NCBI GenBank assembly: GCA_963695855.1
Contig: CAVOHZ010000004.1
Coordinates: 1 to 64,000, forward strand
Source of the DNA: an uncultured Nitrososphaerales archaeon
GTDB lineage: Archaea; Thermoproteota; Nitrososphaeria; Nitrososphaerales; Nitrososphaeraceae
Length of the DNA: 64,000 nucleotides
Direction of reading: 5' to 3'
Shown: piece after piece, positions 13,944-63,460 of the stretch
Position numbering within the stretch: the stretch's first letter is position 1
How the letters are laid out: every line of letters begins with the position of its first letter
Translations under genes and position numbers: made by a program
The notes under the pieces: model-generated
The model's database searches: none
Told to the model about the DNA's origin: nothing
The model's input: the letters and a program-made list of their open reading frames with translations, nothing else

Positions 13944-14190
13944 ATATATATTATTTATTCTTTTAATTTATCTTAAAGAAAAAGAAAAAGAGTAGTTCGT
14001 AAATTTTAAATTATATAGAAAATGTAAGTGAACTCCAGTTTATAATATTTAATTATCTAGTAATACAGAATAACAATAAAAAAATAAATTATTCTCATAA
14101 ATTAAGAAATAAACTATTGATAATCTTGATAAATATATAATAACAATAATTAAATTAGAAATTATTAATACAATGAATATCTATACAATA

Positions 14191-14231
14191 ATACATGCTT
14201 AAAGTTAATATCAACGTCATGCCCTGGCGCT
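14191..14231 (+). repeat. att-like motif copy 3 (degenerate)
   Basis: ATACATGCTTAAAGTTAATATCAACGTCATGCCCTGGCGCT aligns with 11333-11379, with a short deletion in the GC-rich part. Confidence 0.45.
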
Positions 14232-14264
14232 TTTTTAGGTTATAACGTTTAATCAATATCTAAA

Positions 14265-14744
14265 AATTGCAATTTTCCAGAAATTTCAAAAAAACGAACA
14301 GATGAACTTTGAATTTGGATGCAAAAAATTCTATAAAGGATAGATGGTTCTGCTTCATTTGTCGGATTTGTTAGTGTTCTAGCAGGATAATTTGGAATTC
14401 CATATATAGATTGAATAGGAAGTACGAGAATAGCAGGATACATATTTTTTATGGCTTATGTAGCTCTAAAAGAATCCACATCAATTCTAGTTGATTCAGT
14501 AAATGATATTTTGTTAAGAAACAAAATAAAAAGACACATAGAAAAGAGGTGTAATGTACGAGTATCAAATATAATGATGATAAAACCACGAGGATATTCT
14601 TTTACAGCTGAGGCTAGTATTAAATTGGATAAAAATATTATTTTAGGAGAAAGTACAAAGATTGTAGAAGATATTGAATCATCTGTAGTCAAGACTTTTA
14701 AAACAGCAAATACATTAATTGTACCGCTTCTGGATTTTGTTTAA
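14265..14744 (+). pseudogene. Cation diffusion facilitator (CDF) transporter, 3' fragment
   Basis: DGSASFVGFVSVLAG*FGIPYID*IGS...GYIFFMAYVALKES is closely similar to the CDF at 37700..38575. It has in-frame stops and no 5' half. Confidence 0.8.
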
Positions 14745-15555: not shown

Positions 15556-16114
15556 CTATTATAATAATAAATAGTAAAAAGCGATTTAAAGAATTATTGC
15601 AGGATACTTGCATAAAAAATGTGTGGTATTATTGTCAATAGAATTTTATGGGTAGATGGGTAGATAATTTATCAGTGTACCGTAATCTACTATAGTCAGG
15701 CTGATTAATATTTACAAAATAGATTTGAGTTTTCAGTGAAATGGTTAACTGCAAAAGATGATGAGTAAATTAGAAAAGTTACCTCGAGGGAAAAGGAGAT
15801 TTTCTAAAGCATATTTGTATGTCAACCCACATATATTTAATAAATACATATTAAATCAGAAATTAAATATGGAAATATATATATGTCATCGTATAAGGGA
15901 TCAAGTCGAATCGGAAAATATAGAGTTGAAGTAAGAAGAAATAGCTAATAGAATTAAGTAAATTTCTGAGGTCACAAATATAAATTTAGACCTTTAGCAA
16001 TGATAATTTGAACATAGTAGTACTTGGTATAGATAGCTTTTGTATATTACAGCGATCATTATATTTATAAAATTTTAATAAAGTATAATAAAGTACTATT
16101 GAAAATAAAAAAAT

Positions 16115-16252
16115 TTAGTGACTGTGCCCACAGCCACAACCTGTATCTCCATGTCCTTGTCTTTCCATACAAGAAGGACAAATAGCAACATTATTTTCAG
16201 ACATAAAGGAAACACCACATGATGTACACTTTAATTTTTGAATTCCTTCCAT
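16115..16252 (-). CDS. 45-aa zinc-finger microprotein with a Cys/His-rich tail (not in ORF track)
   Basis: Hand translation: MEGIQKLKCTSCGVSFMSENNVAICPSCMERQGHGDTGCGCGHSH*. Confidence 0.75.
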   Translation of the reverse strand: MEGIQKLKCTSCGVSFMSENNVAICPSCMERQGHGDTGCGCGHSH

Positions 16253-29596: not shown

Positions 29597-30550
29597 ATTT
29601 CTTCTCAATGTTACATAGGACAAATACAATAACATTAAAAAATCTGGCTGGAAAGATATTTCCTGTCATCTTCCTAGTTTTTTCATTGTTATTCCTGTCA
29701 TTTCTTTTCATAGTAACTATCTACGAAACTTTGACCTATGGTCATTTAACTGAAAAACCTATCAACTAGAACTTCAAAAAATATGGACTACTTCAAATGG
29801 GTAATTGTCTAGTATTTATTTGAATTTGAAATTATGAACTCGATAAATGTTGCTATATTATCCGGTGCTTCTCGTAAAAGTTTTTATTTTTATACATCGT
29901 TCAATGACATACATATTTTGTAGATGATAATTTTGTTGATTTTTTGATAAAAGAATTTCAATTATTAAATTTTCGATTCTAACTTTAGCGTAGCACATTA
30001 TCTATTATATTAAAATTTTTCAGTAGTGAATGTACCCATGTTTTATATGCAGAAAAGTACAGAGTGAAGGGTAGCAAGTACATTTGGATATCTGCAGAAT
30101 CAAACCTTTAAATTAATTTCTATATATCTAAAATAATTTAGTTTCATTTATTAGAAGTCATTAAAACAAAGAAAATACAATTATATAATAAATCATGATA
30201 ATTTCAAGTTTTTTGACAACCATTCAATAAATATTATCAATTTTGTGCTTTATTCAATTCCAAATTTCATTGATAAAGATAACAAAGATTTATCTAAAAA
30301 TTAGTCACTAAATCATCTCTACTATTAATTAGGGTATTTTGTTATTTTTATTTAGACATATCATATTGCTACGATCATATTGGGAACGACTTATCAATCC
30401 CTTAGAAAGTATAGTAATATTTTGACTGATAATTAATATATTGATTTATTATTAGCATTATTTATAACGTAAGCTATAGTAACAATAAAACTGGTAATAG
30501 CGTTATAATGTTAAAATAAATAGGCGACGATATTTTCATGTTTAAGAAGT

Positions 30551-33086: not shown

Positions 33087-33527
33087 TTAACTGATAGGCT
33101 TTCCGCTTGCGACTATCTTGTAATCACCTAATTTATTAAAGGCAATAACTTCTGTAATATCGAAAGGCACTTGTTTATCCGGTTTTAAAATAGCAGGAGA
33201 AGTAATAAAATGATCGACTTTTTCTAATAAAACTCCATTTTTATCATAATATTCTGCATGAATTTTTATTTCATGTAAATCATCTGTACTATTATTCTTT
33301 ATATCACCCTTTATTTCAACTAAATTAGTTCCGCCTCTATCTACAAGAAGATTTTCAATTGTCACATTTATTTTATCGACTCTTATAGTTGCAGTACTAT
33401 TTTCTGAGGAGGTTTGTGATTCTATGTCCAAACTAAAAAAAGGAAAAGTAAATGAAACCAACGACAATATAGAAATATATCGAATTTTTTGATATTTATA
33501 TGAACTAGACAGTATATTCCTTATCAT
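33087..33527 (-). CDS. FxLYD-like domain exported protein
   Basis: IKGDIKNNS...IHAEYYDKNG...LKPDKQVPF. Confidence 0.7.
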   Translation of the reverse strand: MIRNILSSSYKYQKIRYISILSLVSFTFPFFSLDIESQTSSENSTATIRVDKINVTIENLLVDRGGTNLVEIKGDIKNNSTDDLHEIKIHAEYYDKNGVLLEKVDHFITSPAILKPDKQVPFDITEVIAFNKLGDYKIVASGKPIS

Positions 33528-33827
33528 GCTGAATAATTTATGGAAGCAGGCTATTTAAATTAATTGAAAATTAAATGATTGTTTATCATTCTTTGTTTTG
33601 TACTACGCAAGTCATAAAGAATTTTAATGAAAATACTCACAGATAATTTATTATAATTTGTAATGAGTTCAGTTTCTCATGTAATTTTTTATTTGCCATC
33701 TAATTCTCATTTGTATATTCGTAAAAATGATCTGGCTAACAATATATATTACAATATGTTTATTATGCTCTTACGGTAATCATCGATAAAAGATAATCCT
33801 TGTTCAACATTAATACTATAATTATAT

Positions 33828-47366: not shown

Positions 47367-47914
47367 AATGCAAGAAGACGGATTGAGTGTTGAAGATAAT
47401 AAAAGAATTTTCAATCTCAAAAATATTTTGTAATTGCATCTAAATTATACTTTTAAAGATATCGGAGATTATTTATTTGCAATTTAATATATAGAATTCT
47501 ATTCTTCATAACTGTTGTAAGAATATAAAATGACTTGAATCAAAATATTAAATAAAAGCAATGTAAAGCTAAATATGCAGTTTAACTTATTTAATTTAAA
47601 TTGGGAATTCCATATTTTTTTATCTTTAATATCTAGACTAACTTTAGATCCAAAACTATACTACATAAGAAAAAATATAATGATTGGTCTCAAAAGAAAC
47701 AAACTTGGCAAAAACTAGTATTAACATTATATAGACATAATAAAGGAAGTGAAAACATTTTGTTCAAAAATATAAAATCAATTTATCCTGATAATGGATC
47801 CTAGAATCTTTACTCAAGAAATAAGATTCAGAAGATATAATATAATAACAACAATTTTTGACAGGATTAAATTCTGCAATGATATTAGATCTTTAAATAA
47901 GAAAATTTAAAAGA

Positions 47915-49627
47915 ATGAATAATATTACATTGGATACGAAGGACATTCTAATCTTATCTATCTTAATTCTGTCATTTTTTTATTCACTTTATTTTGATAA
48001 AACTTTCGCAGAATCTCCTTCTTTTATAACCCAGGAAATAGCTGACAGTAACGCGGATTCGACCTTTAAACCAGGTACTAACCATTTATGTAATACAATT
48101 GACGAGTTCATAAAGCCTGCAGAGATCGATTCTGTCAAGTACTATAGTAACGGGAAAGAAATAACCTCACGAATATATCTTTCAAAACCCCTTTATGATC
48201 CTAACCAAATAGCGGAATTTATTAAAATTCCTGAAACAAAAATTACTACTAGTATCCTACTTTCAGAAATCGAAGAAAATTCTTCTTTATTAGACTATTT
48301 AAATATAAAGTTGACACATAATTCAACACATCAACAAAATCCAAGGTCGGGAGAGTACAATATGGAATCCTATAAAATTGGAGGATCCAAAGCTGGATAT
48401 GAAACAGTTTATTATAAAATTGGCAATAAGCTCTTGACATTTAACTATCAGGCACCATTATTTGAATATGCATCATATCATAGTGGATTCAAAAAAGTAA
48501 TTAACAACGTCATCTATAAATTGTCTAATATAACTGCATATAAAAAAACCCTTGATTTTATTAACGAGACCCTATTCATTGATTCGTTTGATCTTAAAAA
48601 ATTAAGGTTGAATTGGAACAATTTACAAAATTCTTTTAATCAGGTTAGTTTTAGTTTTTATCCCTTCAATTACCAATATCAATACTATACTATGAATATA
48701 GATATTAAATCAATTTTTGATCCAGGATCTGACTATAAGCTAAAATATGGTAGAGAAATATACAGGGGAAACAATCAATGGTATAGATCTCTTTACGAAG
48801 TTTCATCCGATCAACAAGGAATCCTTATTACCAATAATCCCGTTGATCCCTTTTTGAATTCTAGTGGAATGAATTATTTTCCATTAGAGTTAGATCCCTT
48901 TTCGAATTCTAGTGGAATGAATTATTTTCCCTTAGAGTTAGATCTTGGATTATTACACTATCCCAGTGAATATAACGTAAATATTATATTTGAATTTGGA
49001 ATCAGGGGTTTTGTTAATGGAACGGAAATTTCTTGTGACAAGTTTGATACCTTACAGTGGCTTTCAGTTCCACCACCTAATATGGATATTAGTCTATCTA
49101 AATATTCTGTCAATCTCAGGCCTGGAGAAACAGAGGATATAAAACTGAAAATTAAAAACGATGCAAATCTTCAAACCACAATCATTCCCAAGGTGTTGGA
49201 TTCCAAAGATCTAGTTCTGAAGTTCGAACATCCTAAAATTTCCATTCCAAAATCTACAAACGGAACTCTCACATTTTCTGTCACCGCACCAGACACATCA
49301 CAAAAGAAAACGGTTACAGTTCCTATAGTATCTCAGATAGAGTTTCCACAAAACGAAACAATATACGGATCGAAAAGTAAGGAAAATGTGAAACTGCAGC
49401 CACCAATAACATTGACAGAGTATCTTACTGTAACTACTTTATCACATTTTACATTTGATGAGCAGCTTGCTAATTTTGTAGAAAAGTATATCACACCTGT
49501 AAATAGTCTTTGGACATTTTTTATTGGGGTAGCAGCAGTCCTTTCTCCAAAAATAATTCAAGCAATTAGGAGGTTATTATCTAGTAAAAGTAAGAAAGAT
49601 GATTTAGAAGTAGAAGATAGTAAATAG
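47915..49627 (+). CDS. Exported, membrane-anchored protein with an Ig-like C-terminal domain
   Basis: Signal peptide, VNLRPGETEDIKLKIKN Ig-like segment and C-terminal TM helix. Confidence 0.75.
   Translation: MNNITLDTKDILILSILILSFFYSLYFDKTFAESPSFITQEIADSNADSTFKPGTNHLCNTIDEFIKPAEIDSVKYYSNGKEITSRIYLSKPLYDPNQIAEFIKIPETKITTSILLSEIEENSSLLDYLNIKLTHNSTHQQNPRSGEYNMESYKIGGSKAGYETVYYKIGNKLLTFNYQAPLFEYASYHSGFKKVINNVIYKLSNITAYKKTLDFINETLFIDSFDLKKLRLNWNNLQNSFNQVSFSFYPFNYQYQYYTMNIDIKSIFDPGSDYKLKYGREIYRGNNQWYRSLYEVSSDQQGILITNNPVDPFLNSSGMNYFPLELDPFSNSSGMNYFPLELDLGLLHYPSEYNVNIIFEFGIRGFVNGTEISCDKFDTLQWLSVPPPNMDISLSKYSVNLRPGETEDIKLKIKNDANLQTTIIPKVLDSKDLVLKFEHPKISIPKSTNGTLTFSVTAPDTSQKKTVTVPIVSQIEFPQNETIYGSKSKENVKLQPPITLTEYLTVTTLSHFTFDEQLANFVEKYITPVNSLWTFFIGVAAVLSPKIIQAIRRLLSSKSKKDDLEVEDSK
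48845..48940 (+). repeat. 48-bp in-frame tandem duplication
   Basis: DPFLNSSGMNYFPLEL / DPFSNSSGMNYFPLEL. Confidence 0.9.
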
Positions 49628-50226
49628 ATATGTTAAGAAAGAAATATTGTATCTTTATTTTACAAGTAACATAACCTAAAAAATAATTATCAATACAGGC
49701 ATATACATAAATTTAAAAAAATAACCATATTAAAACTTTAAATTTGATTTTTGTTTAGAATTACATTTAAAAGTTGTATAATTTTTTAACAAATACTGGT
49801 ATAATATTTTCAATAATATGTTTCACTTTATCATTATTTATTCTGGTTTCTTTATGTTCTTTTTCAAGAGATCGTATTCATTGGTCATTTAATTTTCTTT
49901 GATCTCATTTCTTTTTCAGACAACATTATTTTTAACAATTTTATGTTACTTTCTATGCGTGCGGTTGTATGTAGATAATATTTTATCTTTGCCATCCAGC
50001 CTTAGCAATATGCTTAGACCGGTCCAGAAATATAAAGGGAACAATTACTATAAAAAAAATGCAAACACTCTGCAAGATGAGTTCAGAGATATTAAAATTG
50101 TAGCTAAAATATACCAATACCAATTAGCATAACGATACATACAATTACTATCGTTATTGAAGCCGTAATTATTATAATTTTGTCATTGAACTTTTGCTAA
50201 CTGGTATAGGATATTGAAATTGACAA

Positions 50227-52461: not shown

Positions 52462-53244
52462 TCAGACTTATTTATAAAAATAGATTTAAAATAACTCTTT
52501 TAACAAATCATTTCAGTTTTTTATATCAAGACATAATTGATAAAGTCTAACAATATATTTTTACGACCATTTCCTGATTTGTCAAATAATTATAAATAGA
52601 CTCATTCGTGTTGCAGAAGAAACTTCAATTCCTAATTTATTTGAAACTATGAAAAAATGACTGCCATATTCTATGGAGATATCATGTGTTACTTGGGTAT
52701 TATCAACTTTTTTTAACAATTATTTAGCTTGAAAGAAAAAATAATGGAATACAAGCATACGAGGAGGAAAAGGTCTGATTGAGGGGTTTCTCGTATTCAC
52801 AAGATAAAATAGAATTACTAGGTAAAGTAATAATATACAATCAAATAACGATATTTGAATTTCAAAGGAAATAAGACTCATAAATAGCAAATAAATTTTC
52901 TCTGCAATAAGGAACTAAAATTGAATTATGGAAAGTATTTGGTTTTGTTATAAATAAAGATTGATCACATTTATGATTCACGAAATTCATAATGACATAT
53001 CTATAGTTTAGTGTCAAGGAATTTTTTACGGATAGAGGATAGTAGAGATATAGAATCTAGATACCAAATCTTTTTTATAATTAGTTTAGAATACAATATT
53101 ATGAGTATTCTTACTATAGATATAGTATTCTTAGGTTATAGTTATTTGGCAAATTATGTTTTTTCGAAAAATAATGAATACAAATTTTTCAATTTAGTAG
53201 AAAGACATATTTTTTCAATTAAAGGAGGACATTAATAGAGAAAC

Positions 53245-54363
53245 ATGAGATTTTTTGGTTCGAAAGGAGTCAGATTTTCAGAGAGCAATATAAAATGTTG
53301 TATATGTTTTATTGATCTTGTAGATTCAACAAAAAATACTTTAAAATTTAGTAATTCAAGTGATACAAGAGAATATTACTCGACATTTATTAACGCGATA
53401 TATGAAATAGTAAAAAAGAATAATGCAAAGGTTGTAAAAAATATTGGTGATTCATTACTATTTTATTTTCCTAATACATCCGATACTACAAATATTTCCG
53501 GTTTTCAGAAGGTTATAGAATGTGGTTTGGAAATATTGGAAAACCGAGAAAATATTAACCAGAAAATGTCAAGTGAAAACTTTCCGCCATTCAATTATAG
53601 AATTAGTATAGATTATGGGGTGGTTGAATTAGCCTTGTCTGGAGAGTACAATCAATTAGATATTTTTGGATCCGCGGTAAATATATGTGCCAAAATTAAT
53701 GTGTTATCTAAACCAAATGAATTAGTAATAGGGGATAATTTCTATAGAATACTAAAAGCCTATTCAGCATTTTTTGAAAAGCATTACCTGTTTGATTTAT
53801 CTGGAGAGTATAAGATACTGGAAGATAGTACATATTCTGCCTACGTCATTAAAAAGAAATCCACTGAAGATACGTTACTCAATAGTCGGGATATCACATA
53901 CAGCTCAAATAACGGAGCTACCTCTGTCGGTTCTATTTCACTAAATAAGCATCAAATTGAACAAGAGACAAGTCACAGAATTTATGACAGTAAGAAAAAA
54001 ATTATTCTGATAGATGATGATCCTGATGTGTTATACAGTTTAGAATTATTTTTGAGTGAATGTAAGTACAATGTTATTTCCTTTACAGATTGCAGATTTG
54101 CTCTAGAATATATGAGGTCAAATCCATTCTACCACAATCTCTTGATAATAGCAGATATTAGGTTAAAAAAAATGAATGGACTGCAACTTTACCTACAAGT
54201 AAAAAGCATAGATCCAACTATAAAATTTCTTTTTATTACGGCCCTAGATATTGTGGATGAGGTAACATCTGTAATACCTGGATTGGATAAGAGTCACATA
54301 ATTAGGAAACCTATAGAAAAAAATGTATTTGTAAATAAAATAAAGACACTATTACCTATGTAA
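53245..54363 (+). CDS. Class III adenylate/guanylate cyclase fused to a C-terminal receiver domain
   Basis: FIDLVDST, KNIGDSL and DIFGSAVN cyclase motifs; LIDDD...IADIRL...FITA...KP receiver motifs. Confidence 0.88.
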   Translation: MRFFGSKGVRFSESNIKCCICFIDLVDSTKNTLKFSNSSDTREYYSTFINAIYEIVKKNNAKVVKNIGDSLLFYFPNTSDTTNISGFQKVIECGLEILENRENINQKMSSENFPPFNYRISIDYGVVELALSGEYNQLDIFGSAVNICAKINVLSKPNELVIGDNFYRILKAYSAFFEKHYLFDLSGEYKILEDSTYSAYVIKKKSTEDTLLNSRDITYSSNNGATSVGSISLNKHQIEQETSHRIYDSKKKIILIDDDPDVLYSLELFLSECKYNVISFTDCRFALEYMRSNPFYHNLLIIADIRLKKMNGLQLYLQVKSIDPTIKFLFITALDIVDEVTSVIPGLDKSHIIRKPIEKNVFVNKIKTLLPM

Positions 54364-54833
54364 TCATTTACATTTTGAAGTTGCTTTTATAAAAAAGGAA
54401 ATATAAATATTGATATTGTACAAATGTGAAAGATTAATGAGATGTAGATTGTGAATTTTGCAGAAATAGAATTATCATCTCTTGATTGGTCAAAGTAGTA
54501 TATTTCTTTTGTAACCAATAGATTTCATCTTGTTATATATAATTCTAAATTTTCAAAATTATAGATTTAATTAATTCAATTCTACGGGTCTTTTTAACGG
54601 GGTAAAAATCGTGAAAGATAATAAATATTAAGGATTTGAAATTTTGGATCAACCTGATTTAGTATATGAGAAATTAAATATAGATGAAATTGTTTAATAT
54701 GTTTCTCTTATCGATAATATGTGTTAGCTATTAACATAAGAATATCGCTGAGTTTAGCAAGTTTTGTAATTTTTTAGTTAATATTTAAGTAACCGAAGAT
54801 TTTAAATATATTATAAACATGAAATAATACAAA

Positions 54834-55703
54834 ATGACCGAAATTACATTAGAAAAAATTAATGAAGCAATAAAAAATTCAAACGCTAAATGGAAAACCA
54901 GAGACCATCCACTGTTAAGGGCATCTCCCACCGAAAAGAAAAGGTCGCTAGGATTGAGAATAAATGAGAGTCAATTGAAATCACTTAGAGCAAAAGCTGC
55001 CCTAGATATCAAAACAGTTATAGAAGATTTTGGCAGACAGGTAAAAAGATTAAATGAAGTAGATTGGAGAAATAATGAAAATAAAAATTATGTAACTTCA
55101 ATAAAAAATCAAAAAAATTGCGGTTCTTGTGTGGGTTTTGGGGTTACAGCAACTCTAGAATCTATGGTACTTTTAGAACAGGGTAAAGAATGTGATCTTT
55201 CAGAGTCTGAATTATTCTTTTGTGGAGGTAAGGATGATGCAAGTTGCTCTAATGGGTGGTGGCCGAGTAGGGCTATACCATATTTGGTCGATAAAGGTCT
55301 ATCACCAGAAGAATGCTTTCCGTATGATGACAATGATATTCCTTGTATCACTTGTCAGGAGCGTGACAATCAGGCAATAAGGATAAGTAAACATGTAGAG
55401 ATAATGAATGTAGAGGATAGAAAAGTATATTTGTCTAGTGTTGGTCCACTTATAGGTGGAATGAGGGTGTTTTCAGACTTTATGTCATATGGTGAAGGAA
55501 TATATTCCCACGTCACTGGAGAAGAAGAAGGAGGACATTGTATACAAATAGTAGGTTTTAGCGATATGGAAAAATGCTGGATATGCAAAAATAGTTGGGG
55601 TCCAAATTGGGGAGAAAATGGATTCTTTAGAATAGAATACAATCAATGTGGACTTGATACTGAATTCCCAATGTGGGGGATAGCTAAAACTCAAATCCAA
55701 TAA
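54834..55703 (+). CDS. Papain-like cysteine protease (C1A), no signal peptide
   Basis: VDWR, IKNQKNCGSC, LSE, GGHC and KNSWG.WGE.GFF; the catalytic Q/C/H/N residues are intact. Confidence 0.93.
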   Translation: MTEITLEKINEAIKNSNAKWKTRDHPLLRASPTEKKRSLGLRINESQLKSLRAKAALDIKTVIEDFGRQVKRLNEVDWRNNENKNYVTSIKNQKNCGSCVGFGVTATLESMVLLEQGKECDLSESELFFCGGKDDASCSNGWWPSRAIPYLVDKGLSPEECFPYDDNDIPCITCQERDNQAIRISKHVEIMNVEDRKVYLSSVGPLIGGMRVFSDFMSYGEGIYSHVTGEEEGGHCIQIVGFSDMEKCWICKNSWGPNWGENGFFRIEYNQCGLDTEFPMWGIAKTQIQ

Positions 55704-55782
55704 AAAGAATGTATAAAAATTTCTTTTTTTTAAAAAAAATATCGTGAGACAATTATCTGCAAAAAGATAAGATAATAGATAA

Positions 55783-56106
55783 TCAAGATTTAATAATATT
55801 TAAAATAAATTCTTTTTCTTCTTTTATCTCTTTTTCCCATGTCTGTTTATATATAAATTTAATTTTGGTTTTCCCTACCTTTATAGTTCTAAACTTTATA
55901 GATTGAATTGAACTACTGCCCATAGTGGTAGTAGCATCTGTGGATTTTTCGTTTTTATCAGAAATTAATTCTAAAAATTCATTGTCAAATATGTAAGTCC
56001 ATCGATAACCGGCAGTTCCTCTTTTTTCGAGTCGGATATCAAAATCCTGGCCCAGAATTACTGAAAATTCATCTGGACCATGATTTGATACCGATCTGTA
56101 ATTCAT
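55783..56106 (-). CDS. Chagasin-family (I42) cysteine protease inhibitor
   Basis: GTAGYRW, MGSSS and YKQTWE correspond to the three chagasin binding loops. Confidence 0.82.
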   Translation of the reverse strand: MNYRSVSNHGPDEFSVILGQDFDIRLEKRGTAGYRWTYIFDNEFLELISDKNEKSTDATTTMGSSSIQSIKFRTIKVGKTKIKFIYKQTWEKEIKEEKEFILNIIKS

Positions 56107-56130
56107 GATATTTTCATTTATATCATATCT

Positions 56131-57042
56131 TTATAATATTATATCACTTGCATTACCTATAGTTACAATTGGAGTCTTCATAGTTGTCATAGGATCAAAT
56201 TTACTGAGAATTCCAAAATCTAGATCAGTAAGAGATGCTATCGTTTTTATTTGAACTTGATATGTTTCATATTTGCCATATACAAATTTTAGTCCATCAA
56301 TCAATTTTTTTTGAGTTTGAATATATGCAGTGGCCGAAATATTTCTATCTTTCTTTATGATTGTGACTACTTTCCAAAAATCTGCAGGAATAAGGAAACG
56401 ATCTTTATAGAGTAGGTCATCTTTTCGAAAAACTGGACCAGTGAAAACATTGACTTTAAGATCATAAAGATCGGCATTTTCTAATATATAATCTTCTAAT
56501 TTTAGCCATGTTTTTTGATTAAGATCTTTGTGTTGTGGTGAACAGTTAGTAAAATGAAATGTATCTTCATTTGCATTCACATAATTATCTCCCCAAACAG
56601 GATCCAATCTACGAACCAGATGACCTCTGTCAAGATCATTTTTTGAATAGACTTCTGGTCCATATTGATACTTTTTATCAATTCTAGGATCAAAATACCA
56701 TATGTCTTTTTCTCTATCTAATTTCTTTAACTTTGAACCATCAATATTTACAGCAGTAAAGAACGCAAGACACCTAGATTTACTCATAACTACGGAAAAA
56801 TTGGCATATTTTAGTTCATGATCATCATTTTTTCTCAATTTTACACAATCTACAATCATAGGATCAGATAAATTGGGTAAAGGAATGGTCTCTTCTAAAA
56901 AATCCAAGTTATAGCCTTCGCGATTGTTATAGAGACTAGGATCTTTTTCAATAATATTCATCTGTTCAAATGGAAGATTTCCTGACATTGGATATTTATG
57001 ATTTATAATATTTTTAAATATTCTCATTCCTCTCTTAAACAA
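56131..57042 (-). CDS. DNA/RNA non-specific endonuclease (NucA/EndoG, His-Me finger)
   Basis: LDRGHLVRR, TFHFTNCSPQH..LNQ..W..LE, VFTGP, IPADFWKV. Confidence 0.93.
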   Translation of the reverse strand: MFKRGMRIFKNIINHKYPMSGNLPFEQMNIIEKDPSLYNNREGYNLDFLEETIPLPNLSDPMIVDCVKLRKNDDHELKYANFSVVMSKSRCLAFFTAVNIDGSKLKKLDREKDIWYFDPRIDKKYQYGPEVYSKNDLDRGHLVRRLDPVWGDNYVNANEDTFHFTNCSPQHKDLNQKTWLKLEDYILENADLYDLKVNVFTGPVFRKDDLLYKDRFLIPADFWKVVTIIKKDRNISATAYIQTQKKLIDGLKFVYGKYETYQVQIKTIASLTDLDFGILSKFDPMTTMKTPIVTIGNASDIIL

Positions 57043-57368
57043 ACTGTTGATTATATTTCAACTTCTTTGGTTTTTACATAATTCAGAAAACTAAAATTTT
57101 CATAATAAGAATATTTCGACATATTTTATTTCAAAGATAATTAATAAATATTTAGAGAACAATAAGATCAAGTTATCCTTAAAGAGACCATTATCGATAA
57201 TCTTTTTAATTGTAATTAACCAATAAAACAACTATACAATATTATACATTAAAATGCAGATAATATAATAGATAAGATCCAAATGTGATTAATTAAATTA
57301 TGGACTTATGTAAATATGAAATTCTTGAAATCTAAAAAATTTAAATACAATTGTTTTAAACAACTAAC

Positions 57369-58229
57369 ATGACAATCGGATTATCGTTAAACATTGGATT
57401 AAATAAAGTAGATCCAAATCATTATGAAGGATGGGATGGTCAATTAAGCGCTTGTGAGTTTGATGCAGATGATATGGCTGAAATAGCTAGAGCAGAAGGT
57501 TTTGAGATACAAAAGCTTATTACGACAGATGCAACTGTAAAAAATGTTGTAAAAAATATCACAGATGCTTCTGAAAAGTTAGAATCAGGAGACATATTCC
57601 TTTTAACATATTCAGGTCATGGGGGAAAATTAAAAGATTTAAATAGAGACGAAAAAGATTTTGAGGATGAAACTTGGTGTCTGTATGATAGACAGTTTGT
57701 AGATGATGAGTTAAATGACTGTCTTTCAAAATTCAAAGAGGGTGTACGTATCTTTGTACTATCAGATAGCTGTCATAGTGGTACAGTAATAAGAGAAATT
57801 AATGGAACATTTATACAAGTTAATCCTCAGTATGAAAAAATTGATGTCAGAAATACTAATGTGGATAAGAACGGAGTCAAGTATAGATTTGTTCCTGATG
57901 CCGTACTAAATAGAGTTTATAGTCGTCATAAAGGACTATATGATCAAATCCTTTCCGATAAAAATTTAAAAGAGTCAGAAGATAAAGTTAAAGCCTCAGC
58001 GATTTTGATTTCAGGATGTCAGGATAATCAATTTTCACAAGATGGGACATATAATGGACTTTTTACAGCTAATCTGCTAAATGTTTGGGACGATGGACAA
58101 TTTAAGGATTCATATAAAACCTTTCATAAAAGAATCGTAAGTCAAATGCCATCAGAGCAGACTCCAAATTATTATGTAATTGGTAAACCTAACCTGGATT
58201 TCGAGAAGAAAATTCCCTTTAAAATATAG
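57369..58229 (+). CDS. Caspase-family (C14, metacaspase-like) protease
   Basis: TYSGHG and SDSCHSG dyad, with a p10-like ISGCQDNQFSQD...NGLFT...QTPN. Confidence 0.93.
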   Translation: MTIGLSLNIGLNKVDPNHYEGWDGQLSACEFDADDMAEIARAEGFEIQKLITTDATVKNVVKNITDASEKLESGDIFLLTYSGHGGKLKDLNRDEKDFEDETWCLYDRQFVDDELNDCLSKFKEGVRIFVLSDSCHSGTVIREINGTFIQVNPQYEKIDVRNTNVDKNGVKYRFVPDAVLNRVYSRHKGLYDQILSDKNLKESEDKVKASAILISGCQDNQFSQDGTYNGLFTANLLNVWDDGQFKDSYKTFHKRIVSQMPSEQTPNYYVIGKPNLDFEKKIPFKI

Positions 58230-58358
58230 TAATCGACTGAAATTTTTCAGTTTTTATAATTTTTTTATTTTTTATTTCAAAAATATATGATATTTCTTGA
58301 TAATTAAACATACGCATGACAACAATCTCTTTATACAAGAATTTCAATTGAAAACATA

Positions 58359-59828
58359 TTGGTCCTGAGAACAAAAATATTGTTTGTTTCATCGGTACCA
58401 GAAGATAAAAATTATATCGATGTTGGTCAAGAGAGCGATATAATATCTGAAGTTCTTGGAATAATGAAGCAAGATAGCAAATTTCAGTTTATTCATAAAC
58501 ATGGCATAATCAGGGGAAAATTTCGAGAAATTCTACAAGATTATAAACCAGATATAATTCATTTTTCAGGACACGGAGGAGAAAAAGAAGGTCTTGTATT
58601 TCAAGATAATGAAGAAATTTCAAAGGAGATGTTAAGAGATATTTTTGATGGTTTACATAATGTACAATTAATTTATCTAAATGCATGTTATTCAGCAAAA
58701 CAGACAGATGCAATCAAAAATTTAACTAATGTCAAAAATATTATTGGGATGAATAAATCAATAGCTGATTATATTGCTATTCAATTTTCTACAAATTTTT
58801 ATAAAAATTATAAAAGAATCGAAATGATAAAAGAATCTTTCAGAGACACGTTTAACAATTTTAGACAAGAATATCCAGATATAGTTAATTTACCTGAACT
58901 AGTTAAAATAGATGAAAAAATAGAGATCAACGATTCTTTGGATAATCAAGATGAAATTGATCTCAAGAAAAAAAGTTCAAGAAGATTGGTTCAGAATCGG
59001 CAAATTTCTATAGACCTTTTATCACAAATTGATCAATCAATAAAAATATTTGATGAAAAAGTTGTTAAAAATGAAGTTGAACCAGAAAAGTTCTGGAAAG
59101 GAGAAACTTCTGTTAACCTCTCAAAAATTTTAATTATATTAGATTCATATTCAGAAGAATATGGTCTTTCCGATATTGAATTAAAAATAGTGAGAGGCAA
59201 TTTTAGAACAGCTGAAACCTTATTTCATACACTTACTTTTAAATCGAATTCAACAGAACTTGCAAGTAAAGAAATAATGCAAAGAAAGATGATAAAATGT
59301 TATGAGGAAATTATAAAAGTGTTAAGAAAATTACTTTTTAATTATAAACTTGATTCTATTCAAAAAATTCAACCCCTTTTCCCACAGGATTCTAGCAGGA
59401 ATATGTTATCTGATACATTATACAAGATTCAATCTTTATCTATTTCGTTAAATACTCTAAAGAATAAAATATTACAATCTATCTTAAGAAATGACGATCC
59501 ACTTGTTCAATCTAATTCTAAGGCCGAATATTTTAATATTTTATTTCATTTAAAGATAGAATATAATAATTTTATAAAATTTATGGAAAAAGAATTTGAT
59601 CCGAACATAGTAGAGAGGAATGTGAATGTCACGAACCTATTTTCAAACCTGAATGATAAATTAATCCTCGAACGAATAAATACAATAGGACTCTATGAAA
59701 GTTTAACCAATATTTATGATATTCAAGATGAATTAGGAAAAATTTTTGAAACATGTGTAGTATTTTTGGATAATATTAACAGAAAGATGAAGTCTGGGAT
59801 ATCGAACTATGAACCAGGAAACAGATAA
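58359..59828 (+). CDS. CHAT-domain (caspase-like) protein with a long helical C-terminal region
   Basis: KILFVSSVP, PDIIHFSGHG, LIYLNACYS, IIGM...AIQFSTNFY. Confidence 0.87.
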   Translation: MVLRTKILFVSSVPEDKNYIDVGQESDIISEVLGIMKQDSKFQFIHKHGIIRGKFREILQDYKPDIIHFSGHGGEKEGLVFQDNEEISKEMLRDIFDGLHNVQLIYLNACYSAKQTDAIKNLTNVKNIIGMNKSIADYIAIQFSTNFYKNYKRIEMIKESFRDTFNNFRQEYPDIVNLPELVKIDEKIEINDSLDNQDEIDLKKKSSRRLVQNRQISIDLLSQIDQSIKIFDEKVVKNEVEPEKFWKGETSVNLSKILIILDSYSEEYGLSDIELKIVRGNFRTAETLFHTLTFKSNSTELASKEIMQRKMIKCYEEIIKVLRKLLFNYKLDSIQKIQPLFPQDSSRNMLSDTLYKIQSLSISLNTLKNKILQSILRNDDPLVQSNSKAEYFNILFHLKIEYNNFIKFMEKEFDPNIVERNVNVTNLFSNLNDKLILERINTIGLYESLTNIYDIQDELGKIFETCVVFLDNINRKMKSGISNYEPGNR

Positions 59829-61428
59829 TTATATTAAAAAAGGTTCTCAAGATACCCAATCTTTAGAATCAGAAAGGGAGGAATTTAATAAAGAATTATT
59901 AGAGCTTTTGAAAAAGATAGATATTGACCAAAAAGATCCTCTAGTAATTAATCAACTATTTGTAGAAATAACAAAAAAAGTCAATGAAATTTGTGAAGTC
60001 TATTACGAATATGAGGAATATGAGAAGATTCTTTCTTATTATAATGCAGTATATGAGAAATATTTAGTGGCATTAGATTCACTGGAGGATTCAGAGGCAC
60101 AATATGGATATTATCTTCCAATAATAAGAGAATCATTTGAATACTGGAAGACAAGAATCCACTGGCTAAAAAAGGAACATACAAGAAAAACTATCAATAA
60201 TGGGAACCTGTTCTTGATCGAAGGCAAATTTGAGAGTGCTTTATATAACTTTGATCACGCATTGAAATATGATAGAAATAATCAGGAATTATTAAACAAA
60301 AAAGGCATTTCGCTATTTTTTCTTGAAAAATATAATGAATCATTAAAATGTTTTGAGGATGCATCAAGGTTATCAGAAAATCGTATACATATATTATATA
60401 ATATAGCTCTTACAAATGAACAATTAAAAAACATTTCAAAAGCTATTGAATTTTATAATAAGATATTAGAGGTTGACGAAAATAATCCATATGCGATGAC
60501 ATCGTTGGGTATTCTTTACTATGAAGAAGAAAATTATAAACTGGCTAAAGAGTACATCCAAAGGGCTTACCAAATTCAAAAGAATGATTGGAGGATCCCT
60601 CTTGCACTAGGATGTATATTAAGTGAAGGATTTGCAGAATATAATAGTGCAAAGAAATATTTTGAAACAGCCATTATGTTGAATCCCAATTCATCCTTAA
60701 TAAAATTGAATTTGGCAAATGTATTGCTCCTTCTTGGAGAATACAACAAAAGTGTAGAGATTTTGAAGAATGTTTCAATAGGAATGGAAAATGTCGAAGA
60801 CAGGTCAAGAGCAATAATATTGAGAATACTACAAATATGCACCAATTACCTCCTCAAAAAAGAAATATCAAATGATCTAATTGAAGAATTGGTCAAATAT
60901 TGCAATTTAAAAGATTTGAATCTTGTTAGCTGGAATTTTAAGAATCTAAAAAATTATGTTTTGAAAATAAATATGGAGTCGAAAACAAAAGACATATTAT
61001 GTTCTATCCTTTCTATTTCAGAGTTAGATGAAAACAGTAAAAAAATTTATTTAGATAGAATCCTTGCAGATTCAGAGAGTATTTTACTTCAAAAAAATAA
61101 TGTAACAAATGTGGATCAGGTAAAAGAGATTTTATTTATAGATCCGGAACAAATAGAGATATCACAAGACACAGAGCCAAACATAATAGAAAAAGGTTCG
61201 TATAATTGGAGACTTTATGTAAAAGCACCTGAACATATATTGTCTTTATTTGAATCTGTTGAATATATTTTAGATCCTAACTATTCAAAAAATATTCAAA
61301 GTGCATTTTCCAAAGATAATGGATTTGCGATCGAGGGAACTGGAAGATTTAATTCTAATGTTGAGATCAAAATAATGATGAAAGACAAATCAATCATCAA
61401 GAAATATATAAAATTGAAGTTCTCGTAA
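59809..61428 (+). CDS. TPR-repeat protein with a C-terminal pYEATS-like domain
   Basis: About 6 TPR motifs. The last ~75 aa (YNWRLYV...ESVEYILDPNY...DNGFAIEGTG...VEIKI) follow the YEATS pattern (V.Y.LHP.F...F.....GWG). Overlaps the CHAT gene by 20 nt. Confidence 0.82.
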   Translation: MNQETDNYIKKGSQDTQSLESEREEFNKELLELLKKIDIDQKDPLVINQLFVEITKKVNEICEVYYEYEEYEKILSYYNAVYEKYLVALDSLEDSEAQYGYYLPIIRESFEYWKTRIHWLKKEHTRKTINNGNLFLIEGKFESALYNFDHALKYDRNNQELLNKKGISLFFLEKYNESLKCFEDASRLSENRIHILYNIALTNEQLKNISKAIEFYNKILEVDENNPYAMTSLGILYYEEENYKLAKEYIQRAYQIQKNDWRIPLALGCILSEGFAEYNSAKKYFETAIMLNPNSSLIKLNLANVLLLLGEYNKSVEILKNVSIGMENVEDRSRAIILRILQICTNYLLKKEISNDLIEELVKYCNLKDLNLVSWNFKNLKNYVLKINMESKTKDILCSILSISELDENSKKIYLDRILADSESILLQKNNVTNVDQVKEILFIDPEQIEISQDTEPNIIEKGSYNWRLYVKAPEHILSLFESVEYILDPNYSKNIQSAFSKDNGFAIEGTGRFNSNVEIKIMMKDKSIIKKYIKLKFS

Positions 61429-61959
61429 AACGATATTTGAAACCATGACTAAAAATAAAAATTTAAATTGATATTTTCAATTCTATTTTTTGAATCAAAT
61501 TAAAAACATTCATTCGTAAATTGTGGATTCAATAAATTTGTCAAACCCTAAATAGAAATTATATTACAGAATTACTTTGATATGACACAATAATTTGAAA
61601 AATAATAATAAAATATTTTTTTAAAATATTTTTTTAATTAATATGTCGTGTCTATTATTATAAAAAAATTCAGGTATTCATCTGTTTCTATACACTGCCT
61701 GAGATACTAGATATGACGAATAGTACTATAATAATAAAAGAACATAAAATAAAAATTGTTTATTTTTAAATCATTATTCGCAATGTAATTAGTATCCTTA
61801 ATATAATTAATATTTAGTTTTATCTGTTTTATAGAAATAATAGTCTTTCAATATATAAATAACGTAAAACTATGAATCTTGTATTACCTTTGATTATTTG
61901 AATTGAGTTATCAAATTATAAAAATGTTAATAATATGTTTGTTTTGAATAAAGTAAAGC

Positions 61960-63048
61960 ATGAGATATAAAAAAATAACTAACTCGAATTTGATAACAGA
62001 TTACAAATGTTTTTGTTCCTACATACCTATTTCGGTACTTGAAAATTTAGCACGTGCAGGAGTAAAAGAAGCGTTACTAAGTATTAATCAAAGTAAAATT
62101 TATCGTGAAAAAAGAGATTTGAAGGATGTAAAAATAGAAAATTTTATGAAAGAATTTACCTCAACAAAAATGGTAGGAAATGCATCAAGAAGTGTCTATG
62201 ACTGTAACAAATGGGAACAGAGAGTATGAAAGCCGGTTAGAAAAGAGAACGGAGGACCCAGTTCAGACGAAACAGTAAATACAGTTTATGATTATGCGGG
62301 AAAAGTTAGAGATTATTTTCTAGAGAAACACAATAATAGAAAATCAATAGATGATGCCAATATGAATCTGTTACTAAATGTCCATTATGGGGAAAAGTAT
62401 CAGAATGCATACTGGGATGGTGATGAAATGACTTTTGGAGATGGAGACGGCGAAATATTTTTGGATTTTGCCAATTCACTAGATGTTATTGCTCATGAAC
62501 TGACACACGGTATAACACAATCGGAAGCCAATCTAGAATATAAAGGTCAATCAGGTGCATTGAATGAACATTTTTCTGATGTATTCGGTACGGTAATAAC
62601 GCAATTTGTTGAGGGACATACAGCAGAAACTGCAGATTGGCTAATAGGCGATGAAATAATGGGTCCTAAACTACGCGGTGAGGCTTTACGGTCTATGATC
62701 GAACCTGGAACTGCATATGATAACAACCTTATGGGAAAGGATCCTCAACCTTCGCATATGAAAGATTATTACAGTGGTGAGGAAGACAATTTTGGTGTTC
62801 ATATTAATAGCGGAATATTGAACAAGACATTCTATCTAGTAGCAAAGGAGATGGAATTAGGTACGAGTACCTCTGCCATCATTTGGTATGATGCATTAGA
62901 AAACCTTTGGCCAACTGCAAAGTTCAATGATGCGGTAAAAGTTATTGTTAGATCGGCACAAACACTGACTGAAAAGAAGAAGGTTCCGAAAGGTTCTGCT
63001 CAAAAAATACGTGCAGCTTTTAGAGAGGTTGGACTTCCCTCTTTATAA
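61960..63048 (+). CDS. Protealysin-like M4 metalloprotease, split by a frameshift near 62225
   Basis: Propeptide-like CSYIPISVL in 61960..62229. NAYWDG, HELTHG, GALNEHFSD and GVHINSG in 62362..63048, whose frame is open back to about 62230. Confidence 0.88.
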
Positions 63049-63137
63049 GATACTAAGACTATACAATGATTTTGATAGTTTTTTATTTCTTGACGATAAC
63101 AAAATATATTTGAAATTTATCTGGATATCATCGATAA

Positions 63138-63460
63138 ATGATAGAAATAGATTTTTCTTTTTCTGGTGGATATGCGAATCTGAGAGGTTCTTTTAAAGGA
63201 AAAATAGAAAATTTACCAGACAACATCACCAGTGAGATAAATAAGATTTTGGAAGAATCTAAAATATTTGATTCAGATTTTGAACCGAAACAACAAAAAA
63301 ATTCATCGTGTCCTCCAGATGTATCTTCATATACGCTTGTCCTAAATAAGAACAGGGAAAAAAAGGAACTATCTTTTAATGACACACAATTCCTAAAGCT
63401 TTACATCCATTAATAGCTCATTTAAGAGAATTCACACTACATAAAAAAAGTTTCCGTTAG
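63138..63460 (+). CDS. Emfourin-like (M4in) protealysin inhibitor; probable frameshift near 63389
   Basis: I.F..SGGYA, PDVSSYTLV and SFND. An alternative frame continues IPKALHPLIAHL to a stop at 63460. Directly follows the M4 gene. Confidence 0.75.

Follow-up and report, generated by a model that had tools for sequence, protein, structure and literature searches.

The question raised by this locus is whether eight contiguous genes encoding proteases, protease inhibitors, a nuclease and a putative sensor, which lie at positions 54834-63460 of contig CAVOHZ010000004.1 of an uncultured Nitrososphaerales archaeon, form one protease system, as the original prediction had it. The stretch of DNA analysed (the window) is the first 64 kb of this contig (C4) from a genome of 3.55 Mb in 11 contigs with a G+C content of ca. 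30%; the genome encodes an archaeal AmoA, and its relatives are Nitrososphaeraceae. We find that the robust unit at the locus is smaller than the eight-gene proposal: it is a three-gene module encoding a metacaspase, a CHAT protease with a helical domain and a TPR-pYEATS protein. On balance, we lean towards the view that the module is a two-tier protease-cascade conflict system, which would end in cell death or growth arrest that aborts infection. The three genes of the module are as follows:

57369-58229, + strand, metacaspase (Peptidase_C14) of 286 amino acids (aa); Pfam 85.1 bits
58359-59828, + strand, CHAT protease; Pfam CHAT 30.8 bits, cut-off 24
59809-61428, + strand, protein with TPR repeats and a pYEATS domain; Pfam TPR families, and pYEATS at 27.2 bits, cut-off 26.9

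Linkage of the three genes was tallied in 27 loci, that is, the window, four loci from metagenome-assembled genomes (MAGs) and 22 metagenome contigs; these come from related lineages and were not strictly dereplicated. The CHAT and TPR-pYEATS genes are adjacent or fused in all 23 assessable loci, the other four contigs ending inside the CHAT gene. In six loci, the two are fused and code for CHAT-TPR-pYEATS proteins of ca. 1000-1130 aa. A metacaspase ortholog (57-65% identity) adjoins the pair in 16 of the 27 loci and is found in two arrangements, either upstream and co-directional or downstream and convergent. Where no adjacent metacaspase gene was seen, the contig ends at or inside the CHAT/TPR-pYEATS pair in 10 out of 11 loci; in locus L025, an M36 peptidase gene follows the pair, and the metacaspase ortholog of that genome is located on another short contig. 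Thus, the caspase-clan core proposed earlier is a real, conserved module, whose linkage survives both rearrangement and gene fusion.

The module has a narrow distribution. Matches to the CHAT protein were found in 14 of 151 genomes of the family, and in about five of them (G000, G093, G134, G005 and G100) the match is full-length. In these five, the metacaspase, CHAT and TPR-pYEATS genes lie together (tblastn), and two of the genomes encode CHAT-TPR-pYEATS as one protein of ca. 1000-1100 aa. When 185,579 species were scanned with one genome each, 63 related loci were retrieved; the helical domain was covered in only four, all of them in Nitrososphaeraceae or Nitrososphaerales MAGs, while the remaining ones, mostly from Nostocales, share just the CHAT domain of ca. 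150 residues. A profile search of 1.84 billion representatives returned 20,172 matches at E ≤ 0.001, and the helical domain was reached by 13 of the best 150. In the species scan and the profile search, full-length relatives were seen only in Nitrososphaeraceae/Nitrososphaerales; a metagenome scan yielded a further 22 loci with full-length relatives. Viral contigs yielded four loci, each with only the CHAT domain and lacking the helical one, giving no sign that the module is virus-borne. A decayed module is present in G138 (L090, G138:C176, 6644-10826), where a split M14 gene is accompanied by a CHAT remnant with stops and an intact metacaspase gene, with a DDE transposase gene between the latter two. 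The peptidases encoded around the trio in other loci are of families M14, S1 (with a small NigD_C-like protein), M12A (astacin-like), M28, M43, M36 and S41.

The CHAT protein carries the motifs SGHG and NACYS, and the His72/Cys110 dyad is invariant in 14 out of 14 sequences. Its Pfam match covers the first ca. 170 residues only. In the AlphaFold2 model (predicted local distance difference test score, pLDDT, of 71), a caspase-like alpha/beta domain (residues 1-180) precedes a bundle of helices (218-478). When compared with the PDB by fold, the protein is most similar to the activated SAVED-CHAT filament, 8TL0 (Foldseek E 3.9e-7, root mean square deviation 3.5 Å over 194 columns), with caspases next; the best, though weak, sequence match is SAVED-CHAT as well (E 0.013). 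For the helical part (ca. 270 residues), no convincing PDB fold match, no known family and no SAVED domain in Pfam were found. We propose that the CHAT protein is the first-tier protease of the module. In another genus, the metacaspase ortholog of L091 (G087:C15, 1386-5506) is divergent from a gene for a 1024-aa protein, in which HYR, PKD and Ig-like domains take the place of the helical and TPR-pYEATS parts behind an N-terminal CHAT-like domain.

The metacaspase contains the motifs SGHG and DSCHSG and matches an uncharacterised Geobacter protein (PDB 3BIJ) over its full length at E 3e-83; weaker PDB matches are to plant and yeast metacaspases (E 1e-14 to 1e-11). It is proposed to serve as the second-tier, broad-specificity protease of the core module.

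The third gene of the module, whose start overlaps the CHAT gene by 20 nucleotides (nt), codes for a protein with a TPR superhelix (residues ca. 130-430) and a C-terminal prokaryotic YEATS domain (ca. 450-535). The AlphaFold2 model (pLDDT 82.8) shows a TPR superhelix ending in a beta sandwich. A fold search with the whole model returned TPR proteins only and no YEATS structure, so that the YEATS assignment rests on profile searches. In these, the last 100 residues match pYEATS (PF20305) in 13 out of 13 homologs and eukaryotic YEATS (PF03366) in 12 of the 13, and a profile of the C-terminal domain matches YEATS2, Yaf9, Taf14 and GAS41 in the PDB, with a best E of 1.1e-5. The likeness to these eukaryotic acyl-lysine readers (YEATS2, AF9/Yaf9, Taf14, GAS41) thus consists of the profile match and the predicted beta sandwich; unlike them, the archaeal domain is joined to TPR repeats and belongs to a protease module, not to a chromatin complex. 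In the window copy, residue 513 (window 61345-61347), which lies in the G-W motif of pYEATS, is Arg, while all 12 other homologs have a conserved Trp; this G-W position is, we assume, that of the conserved aromatic residue of the YEATS binding loop, with a role in ligand binding.

Does the TPR-pYEATS protein contact the CHAT protein? A model of the complex between the CHAT helical domain and the first 440 residues of the TPR protein scored 0.62, compared with 0.22 for the best control, which favours binding. This score was reached by 58 out of 80 solved complexes and by 2 out of 110 mismatched pairs, counts that hold roughly, since our own alignments were used. Between runs, at least 26% of contacts were in common, and the pLDDT of the partners was at least 78. 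The predicted contact agrees with the natural CHAT-TPR-pYEATS fusions. Together, the prediction and the fusions support binding of the TPR-pYEATS protein to the CHAT helical domain, and we propose that the former is a sensor or scaffold bound to the CHAT protein. In the available part of one report, pYEATS is named as a ligand-binding sensor domain of conflict systems (10.64898/2026.10.19.760177).

The other five of the eight genes, the block to which the module belongs and the left neighbour of this block are listed below:

54834-55703, + strand, papain-family cysteine protease (Peptidase_C1); Pfam 152.6 bits
55783-56106, - strand, chagasin-family inhibitor (Inhibitor_I42); Pfam 64.1 bits
56131-57042, - strand, NucA/EndoG-type nuclease (Endonuclease_NS); Pfam 168 bits
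61960-63048, + strand, protealysin-like M4 metalloprotease gene, interrupted; Pfam Peptidase_M4/M4_C match at 62362-63048 (downstream part)
63138-63413, + strand, gene of emfourin (M4 inhibitor), frameshifted; Pfam 25.2 bits, cut-off 27
54376-61960, indel block of 7.6 kb, from the papain to the TPR-pYEATS gene; present in the window, absent from congener G012
53245-54363, class III nucleotide cyclase and receiver-domain gene, left neighbour of the block

All eight domain calls of the original prediction and their coordinates hold in the open reading frame (ORF) listing and in Pfam. The catalytic motifs, said to be intact, are indeed readable in the translations of all four proteases and of the nuclease, but the M4 gene itself is interrupted by a TGA codon. 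No signal peptide is evident in the peptidases and nucleases of the island, which agrees with the earlier claim. This check was a crude hydropathy scan, not SignalP: the maximal Kyte-Doolittle mean over 15 residues, taken within the first 60 residues, is at most 1.5 for the island peptidases and nucleases scanned and at least 2.4 for evident secreted or membrane neighbours. A small unannotated flanking ORF (cl16) has a maximum of 1.95.

No named system had been recognised in these genes, and PADLOC (PADLOC-DB v2) names none for the island. Six of nine proteins gave no PADLOC match, while the metacaspase (22.8 bits, caspase model) and the CHAT protein (22.1 bits, BovA) matched over partial regions. 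NCBIfam supplied no informative names, the best being caspase_w_EACC1 at 24.8 bits against a cut-off of 140. Neither CRISPR nor CD-NTase genes were found among the ORFs of 53245-63413 (Pfam) or in the flanks.

One can ask whether the eight genes are simply unrelated neighbours, juxtaposed by chance or by hitch-hiking. The M4/emfourin pair is a resident independent of the block, papain/chagasin pairs occur alone elsewhere and so does the metacaspase, all of which would fit such a view. However, the three core genes have remained linked in the 27 loci despite fusion and inversion, and a NucA ortholog is found beside the module in four of them (the window, L024, L115 and, as a broken copy, L118), at either side of it. 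Peptidase cargo is also present repeatedly, both at the site and around the trio. Moreover, each of the eight genes is the sole close copy in the 3.55-Mb genome (tblastn, E ≤ 0.01, setting aside generic TPR matches and two marginal partial matches of ca. 35 bits), and all lie within 8.6 kb, so that their clustering exceeds chance. We therefore consider a purely accidental neighbourhood very improbable. The claim that all eight genes make up one system stands for the trio, with NucA as a recurrent companion, and falls for the M4/emfourin pair, a resident, and for the papain/chagasin pair, which a gene-neighbourhood check in the other 26 loci did not find beside the trio.

The product of the NucA gene is of the type of the non-specific DNA/RNA endonucleases and carries a DRGH motif; the gene is divergent from the metacaspase gene, and its true start is probably an internal Met codon at residue 19. 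The orthologs that adjoin the trio in L024 and L115 are 57-64% identical to it. We propose NucA as the effector of the cascade. In another genus, the NucA domain is C-terminal in proteins of 633-644 aa (L201, that is, G073:C7 4415-6316; also G132, G082 and G001). In G073, G082 and G132, an M14 gene lies 3-4 kb from the long NucA gene, and M6 and S1 genes are annotated only in G073.

The chagasin gene lies on the same strand as the nuclease gene, 24 nt downstream of it, and is convergent with the papain gene. The papain-like protein has the motifs CGSC, GGHC and NSWG, with the catalytic Cys, His and Asn present. The chagasin motifs have diverged: RGTAGYRW, GSSS and QTW are found in place of the NPTTGYRW, GGGG and RPW of family relatives. 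The relatives in L100 and L102 have NPTTG or NPGTG, and RPW or REW; we take NPTTG, GXGG and RPW to be the canonical loop motifs. Papain homologs occur in 17 of the 151 family genomes, and chagasin adjoins papain in four of five papain loci examined. Pairs without a metacaspase gene nearby were seen in four loci of three other genomes. In G132, a papain-like gene adjoins the metacaspase ortholog, and both contain stops. We regard the papain-like protease as an accessory of the block and as a candidate effector that chagasin would restrain.

The second protease-inhibitor pair has a different status. The M4 frames 61957-62229 and 62230-63048, whose translations contain the motifs HELTH and NEHFSD, are one reading frame interrupted by a TGA codon at 62227-62229. 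The ortholog in congener G012 is 81% identical, uninterrupted and 360 aa long, with Asp at the TGA position. Recoding of TGA as selenocysteine or Trp was dismissed, since 254 of 1030 long frames in this genome end in TGA and the G012 ortholog carries Asp at the site. The emfourin gene, which lies 89 nt from the M4 gene, is frameshifted near 63385, its last ca. 25 residues continuing in another frame; the Pfam match spans positions 3-78 of 91 at 25.2 bits, compared with 3-90 at 40.3 bits for the G012 copy. M4 homologs occur in 27 of 151 genomes (a count that includes G077), and the pair is conserved in four other Nitrososphaeraceae genomes checked. In G012, M4 and emfourin follow directly after the cyclase-receiver gene and the trio is absent. 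The symmetric bracket of two protease-inhibitor pairs around the core, to which the original prediction had drawn attention, is therefore coincidental: M4/emfourin is a decayed resident neighbour outside the caspase block, both of whose genes are broken in the window. The arrangement is like that of the protealysin-emfourin operon of Serratia proteamaculans, as far as the available parts of the two reports go (PMC9505478, PMC6778150), in that a gene for a leaderless M4 protease is followed by the emfourin gene; unlike there, the protease gene in the window has a premature stop, the inhibitor gene is frameshifted and the pair lies outside a caspase block. The accessible text of the former also states that protealysin-like proteases occur in certain archaea (PMC9505478).

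Enzyme-inhibitor pairs of this kind resemble toxin-immunity pairs, as proposed for protealysin/emfourin in the available part of the same work (PMC9505478), and variable cargo at a fixed site is likewise typical of polymorphic toxin loci. The leaderless hydrolases might accordingly be intermicrobial toxins exported non-classically, with chagasin, emfourin and perhaps the NigD_C-like protein as immunity proteins and the caspase/CHAT module processing or releasing the toxins. However, in the block ORFs scanned by Pfam and hydropathy, neither secretion-system genes nor toxin-delivery domains nor signal peptides were seen, a conserved small partner gene of NucA is missing in L024 and L115, and the M4/emfourin pair is decaying in this genome. 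We regard the toxin explanation as quite improbable.

Comparison with congeners defines the block and the region that contains it. G012, a genome of the same genus, is 98% complete, gave no match to CHAT or the metacaspase and is colinear with the window. In it, the cyclase-receiver gene (window 53239-54375) is followed within ca. 140 bp by M4 and then by emfourin (tblastx), so that window positions 54376-61960 are a 7.6-kb indel block. After M4/emfourin, G012 has a small ORF and genes for M43 and M28 peptidases; the same three genes flank the metacaspase gene in L114 and L116. G112, another member of the genus without CHAT or metacaspase matches, is ca. 90% identical in nucleotide sequence up to 54362 and then carries unrelated cargo (blastn). 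The left edge of the block coincides with this end of synteny, which is the end of the cyclase-receiver gene. The G112 cargo at the same site encodes an Ig/cadherin-like protein, two M14 carboxypeptidases, a C11 clostripain-like protease, an S8 subtilase with an I9 propeptide and a trypsin-like S1 peptidase. At the block edges, only short AT-rich repeats at chance level and no multicopy element were found, and there is no tRNA gene in 40000-64000.

Islands without the trio occur in other genera as well. That of G041 contains S1, an NigD_C-like protein, NucA, M28 and M4 with emfourin, and that of G073 a 633-aa NucA protein, M6, M14, an NigD_C-like protein and S1. A cluster in G048 (L026, G048:C48, 2551-17551) encodes a TIR-SIR2 protein, an nSTAND1 NTPase with a beta-propeller, a 330-aa CHAT protein and a TPR-S/MAP3K_TRAF_bd protein, and adjoins the same M14, cl6 and M12A peptidase genes; it resembles a conflict system of its own within an island of similar type. 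Thus, the region, located immediately behind a conserved cyclase-receiver gene in a genus of soil ammonia-oxidising archaea (Nitrososphaeraceae), is a variable island rich in leaderless hydrolases and inhibitors, of which the trio is a facultative tenant. Since peptidase-rich cargo is found in genomes free of the trio, the flanking proteases cannot be assumed to be substrates or effectors of a cascade.

The same peptidase sets raise the possibility that the island supplies intracellular degradative enzymes for regulated self-digestion in starvation, dormancy or biofilms and has nothing to do with invaders; the caspase-like proteases would then regulate turnover, and the inhibitors would buffer protease activity in the cytoplasm. 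The exo- and endopeptidases of the site (M14, M28, S1, S8, M12A, M43) could together degrade proteins completely, with or without the trio, metacaspase orthologs sit among housekeeping genes in other genera, and the block has no known invader sensor or NTPase. Nevertheless, cargo differs between congeners whose flanks are ca. 90% identical, a turnover typical of conflict genes and not of core physiology. Decay is seen in the M4 stop, the emfourin frameshift and the transposase-disrupted trio of G138, in G048 the related cluster is bordered by genes for TIR-SIR2 and STAND proteins, and the trio is present in few genomes (CHAT relatives in 14 of 151, full-length in about five). We consider self-digestion unlikely.

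We return to the two-tier cascade that aborts infection, a reading based on the conserved linkage and fusion of the module, the fold relationship to SAVED-CHAT and published related systems. We infer the following course, from the trigger through the order of cleavage and the substrates to the outcome. The TPR-pYEATS protein would sense a trigger, which might be an invader- or stress-related protein or an acylated ligand, and sensing would switch on the CHAT protease. The latter would cleave and activate the metacaspase, which in turn would cleave many cell proteins and license leaderless hydrolases encoded nearby, here NucA above all and perhaps the papain-like protease. Licensing may proceed through removal of an extension or destruction of the chagasin inhibitor. 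The expected outcome would be cell death or growth arrest. It speaks for such a scheme that a leaderless non-specific nuclease free in the cytoplasm needs restraint.

Other observations weigh against it. The Arg at position 513 may weaken ligand binding by pYEATS in the window copy. Peptidase cargo at the same site in G012 and G112, both free of the trio, implies that the flanking peptidases are not dependent effectors, and the papain/chagasin pair accompanies the trio in the genome of the window only. In other genera of the family, solitary metacaspase orthologs of 52-55% identity have housekeeping genes as neighbours (Lhr helicase, CDC48, methyltransferase), which indicates that this protease also works outside the module. 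The block lacks an NTPase, a cyclase-sensor domain or another known trigger module, and the PADLOC matches to its components are weak and of a sub-threshold type. Finally, the 27 loci, being from related lineages, are not independent samples.

Among known systems, Craspase, which we take to be the type III-E gRAMP in complex with the TPR-CHAT protein Csx29, similarly combines CHAT with TPR repeats and is a sensor-activated specific protease. Unlike Craspase, the fused archaeal forms have the reverse domain order (CHAT-helical-TPR-pYEATS), the block encodes no gRAMP/Cas7-11, Csx30 or Csx31, and the module contains a second caspase-type protease.

The closest parallel is SAVED-CHAT/PCaspase of the Haliangium ochraceum type III-B CRISPR locus (8TL0). 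There, according to the accessible text of the report, SAVED-CHAT cleaves and activates the adjacent PCaspase, many proteins are cleaved with an abortive phenotype, and the cluster also encodes a caspase inhibitor, PCi (10.1101/2023.06.23.546230). The two loci are alike in that CHAT lies beside a C14 caspase and has a His/Cys dyad, a protease inhibitor is present in the gene cluster, and 8TL0 is the best match of the archaeal CHAT protein by fold and also, weakly, by sequence. In contrast to the bacterial protein, the archaeal one has no SAVED domain, and its N-terminal CHAT domain is succeeded by a helical domain that belongs to no known family. The role of sensor is presumed to fall to a TPR-pYEATS protein, either separate or fused, the system occurs in an archaeon, and the block contains neither CRISPR nor CD-NTase genes. 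Cleavage of the metacaspase by CHAT would here be an analogy with the bacterial pair.

Deployment of NucA through a proteolytic cascade is predicted for peptidase-plus-NucA systems in the accessible part of Kaur et al. 2020 ('System 3', PMC7159879). As in that system, NucA/Endonuclease_NS is linked to peptidase genes, and the G041 and G073 islands hold both S1 and NucA. The core peptidase of 'System 3', as far as the available text describes it, is trypsin-like, often membrane-anchored and mostly alphaproteobacterial, whereas a caspase-clan core is present here; the block has no trypsin-like gene, and EAD1 and Death-like domains were not detected. Latent effectors that are licensed by proteases have been described elsewhere as well (PMC12642450, available part).

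The literature searched, whose supplementary tables may list such architectures, gives no account of the module or of caspase/CHAT systems in ammonia-oxidising archaea; in the same literature, the experimental demonstrations of caspase-type cascades in prokaryotic immunity have so far come from bacteria. Little is known about the defences and death pathways of ammonia-oxidising archaea, which are major nitrifiers in soil. The CHAT-metacaspase module with a YEATS-type candidate sensor offers a directly testable case of a putative archaeal cascade and poses the question of what a prokaryotic YEATS domain binds. That congeners differ in the set of cytoplasmic peptidases at one chromosomal site suggests a type of variable island that is missed by standard defence-finders. 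A bolder extension, which we put forward as doubtful, is that the site holds a locus-fixed, fast-exchanging arsenal of leaderless hydrolases and inhibitors, commanded in some lineages by an apoptosis-like two-tier caspase cascade with a YEATS-type reader. CHAT would be held by a TPR-YEATS reader of an acylated or invader-derived protein, and the metacaspase would license interchangeable executioners such as NucA, papain, M14, S1 and other peptidases. If true, this would be an archaeal programmed-death or immune hub triggered by a YEATS-type reader, a combination not described in the literature searched.

Several minor observations concern the surroundings. The cyclase-receiver gene, for which PycC-like PADLOC matches were obtained, was considered as a part of the system and rejected: the genome has at least 10 paralogs of it, full-length or partial (46-66% identity), on 8 contigs, and the gene is retained at the site irrespective of the cargo. 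In three congeners, it forms the left boundary of the variable island. The window also differs from G112 by a second indel (window 47457-49826), which contains a gene for a 570-aa protein (47915-49627) with an N-terminal hydrophobic stretch, relatives of which also neighbour the trio in L024, L113 and L123. Soil metagenome runs hold 0.2-0.4 of the sampled words of the stretch and two RNA runs 0.05, small shares that are no evidence of habitat. The peptidases of the G112 island (L199, G112:C31, 7425-19586) show no evident signal peptide by eye. In this island (L199 and L202, G112:C31), stretches of 200-400 nt at ca. 14135-14360, 15999-16219, 29980-30235 and 33367-33776 match from 7 to more than 25 places in the genome of the window at 70-80% identity and may represent a dispersed repeat family. 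A trypsin-like peptidase gene is repeatedly paired with that of a ca. 130-aa NigD_C beta-sandwich protein (32.6 bits), as in L022 (6801-8301), L122 (2340-3868), L200 (1891-3669) and L201 (10351-12086), which may be another protease-inhibitor pair.

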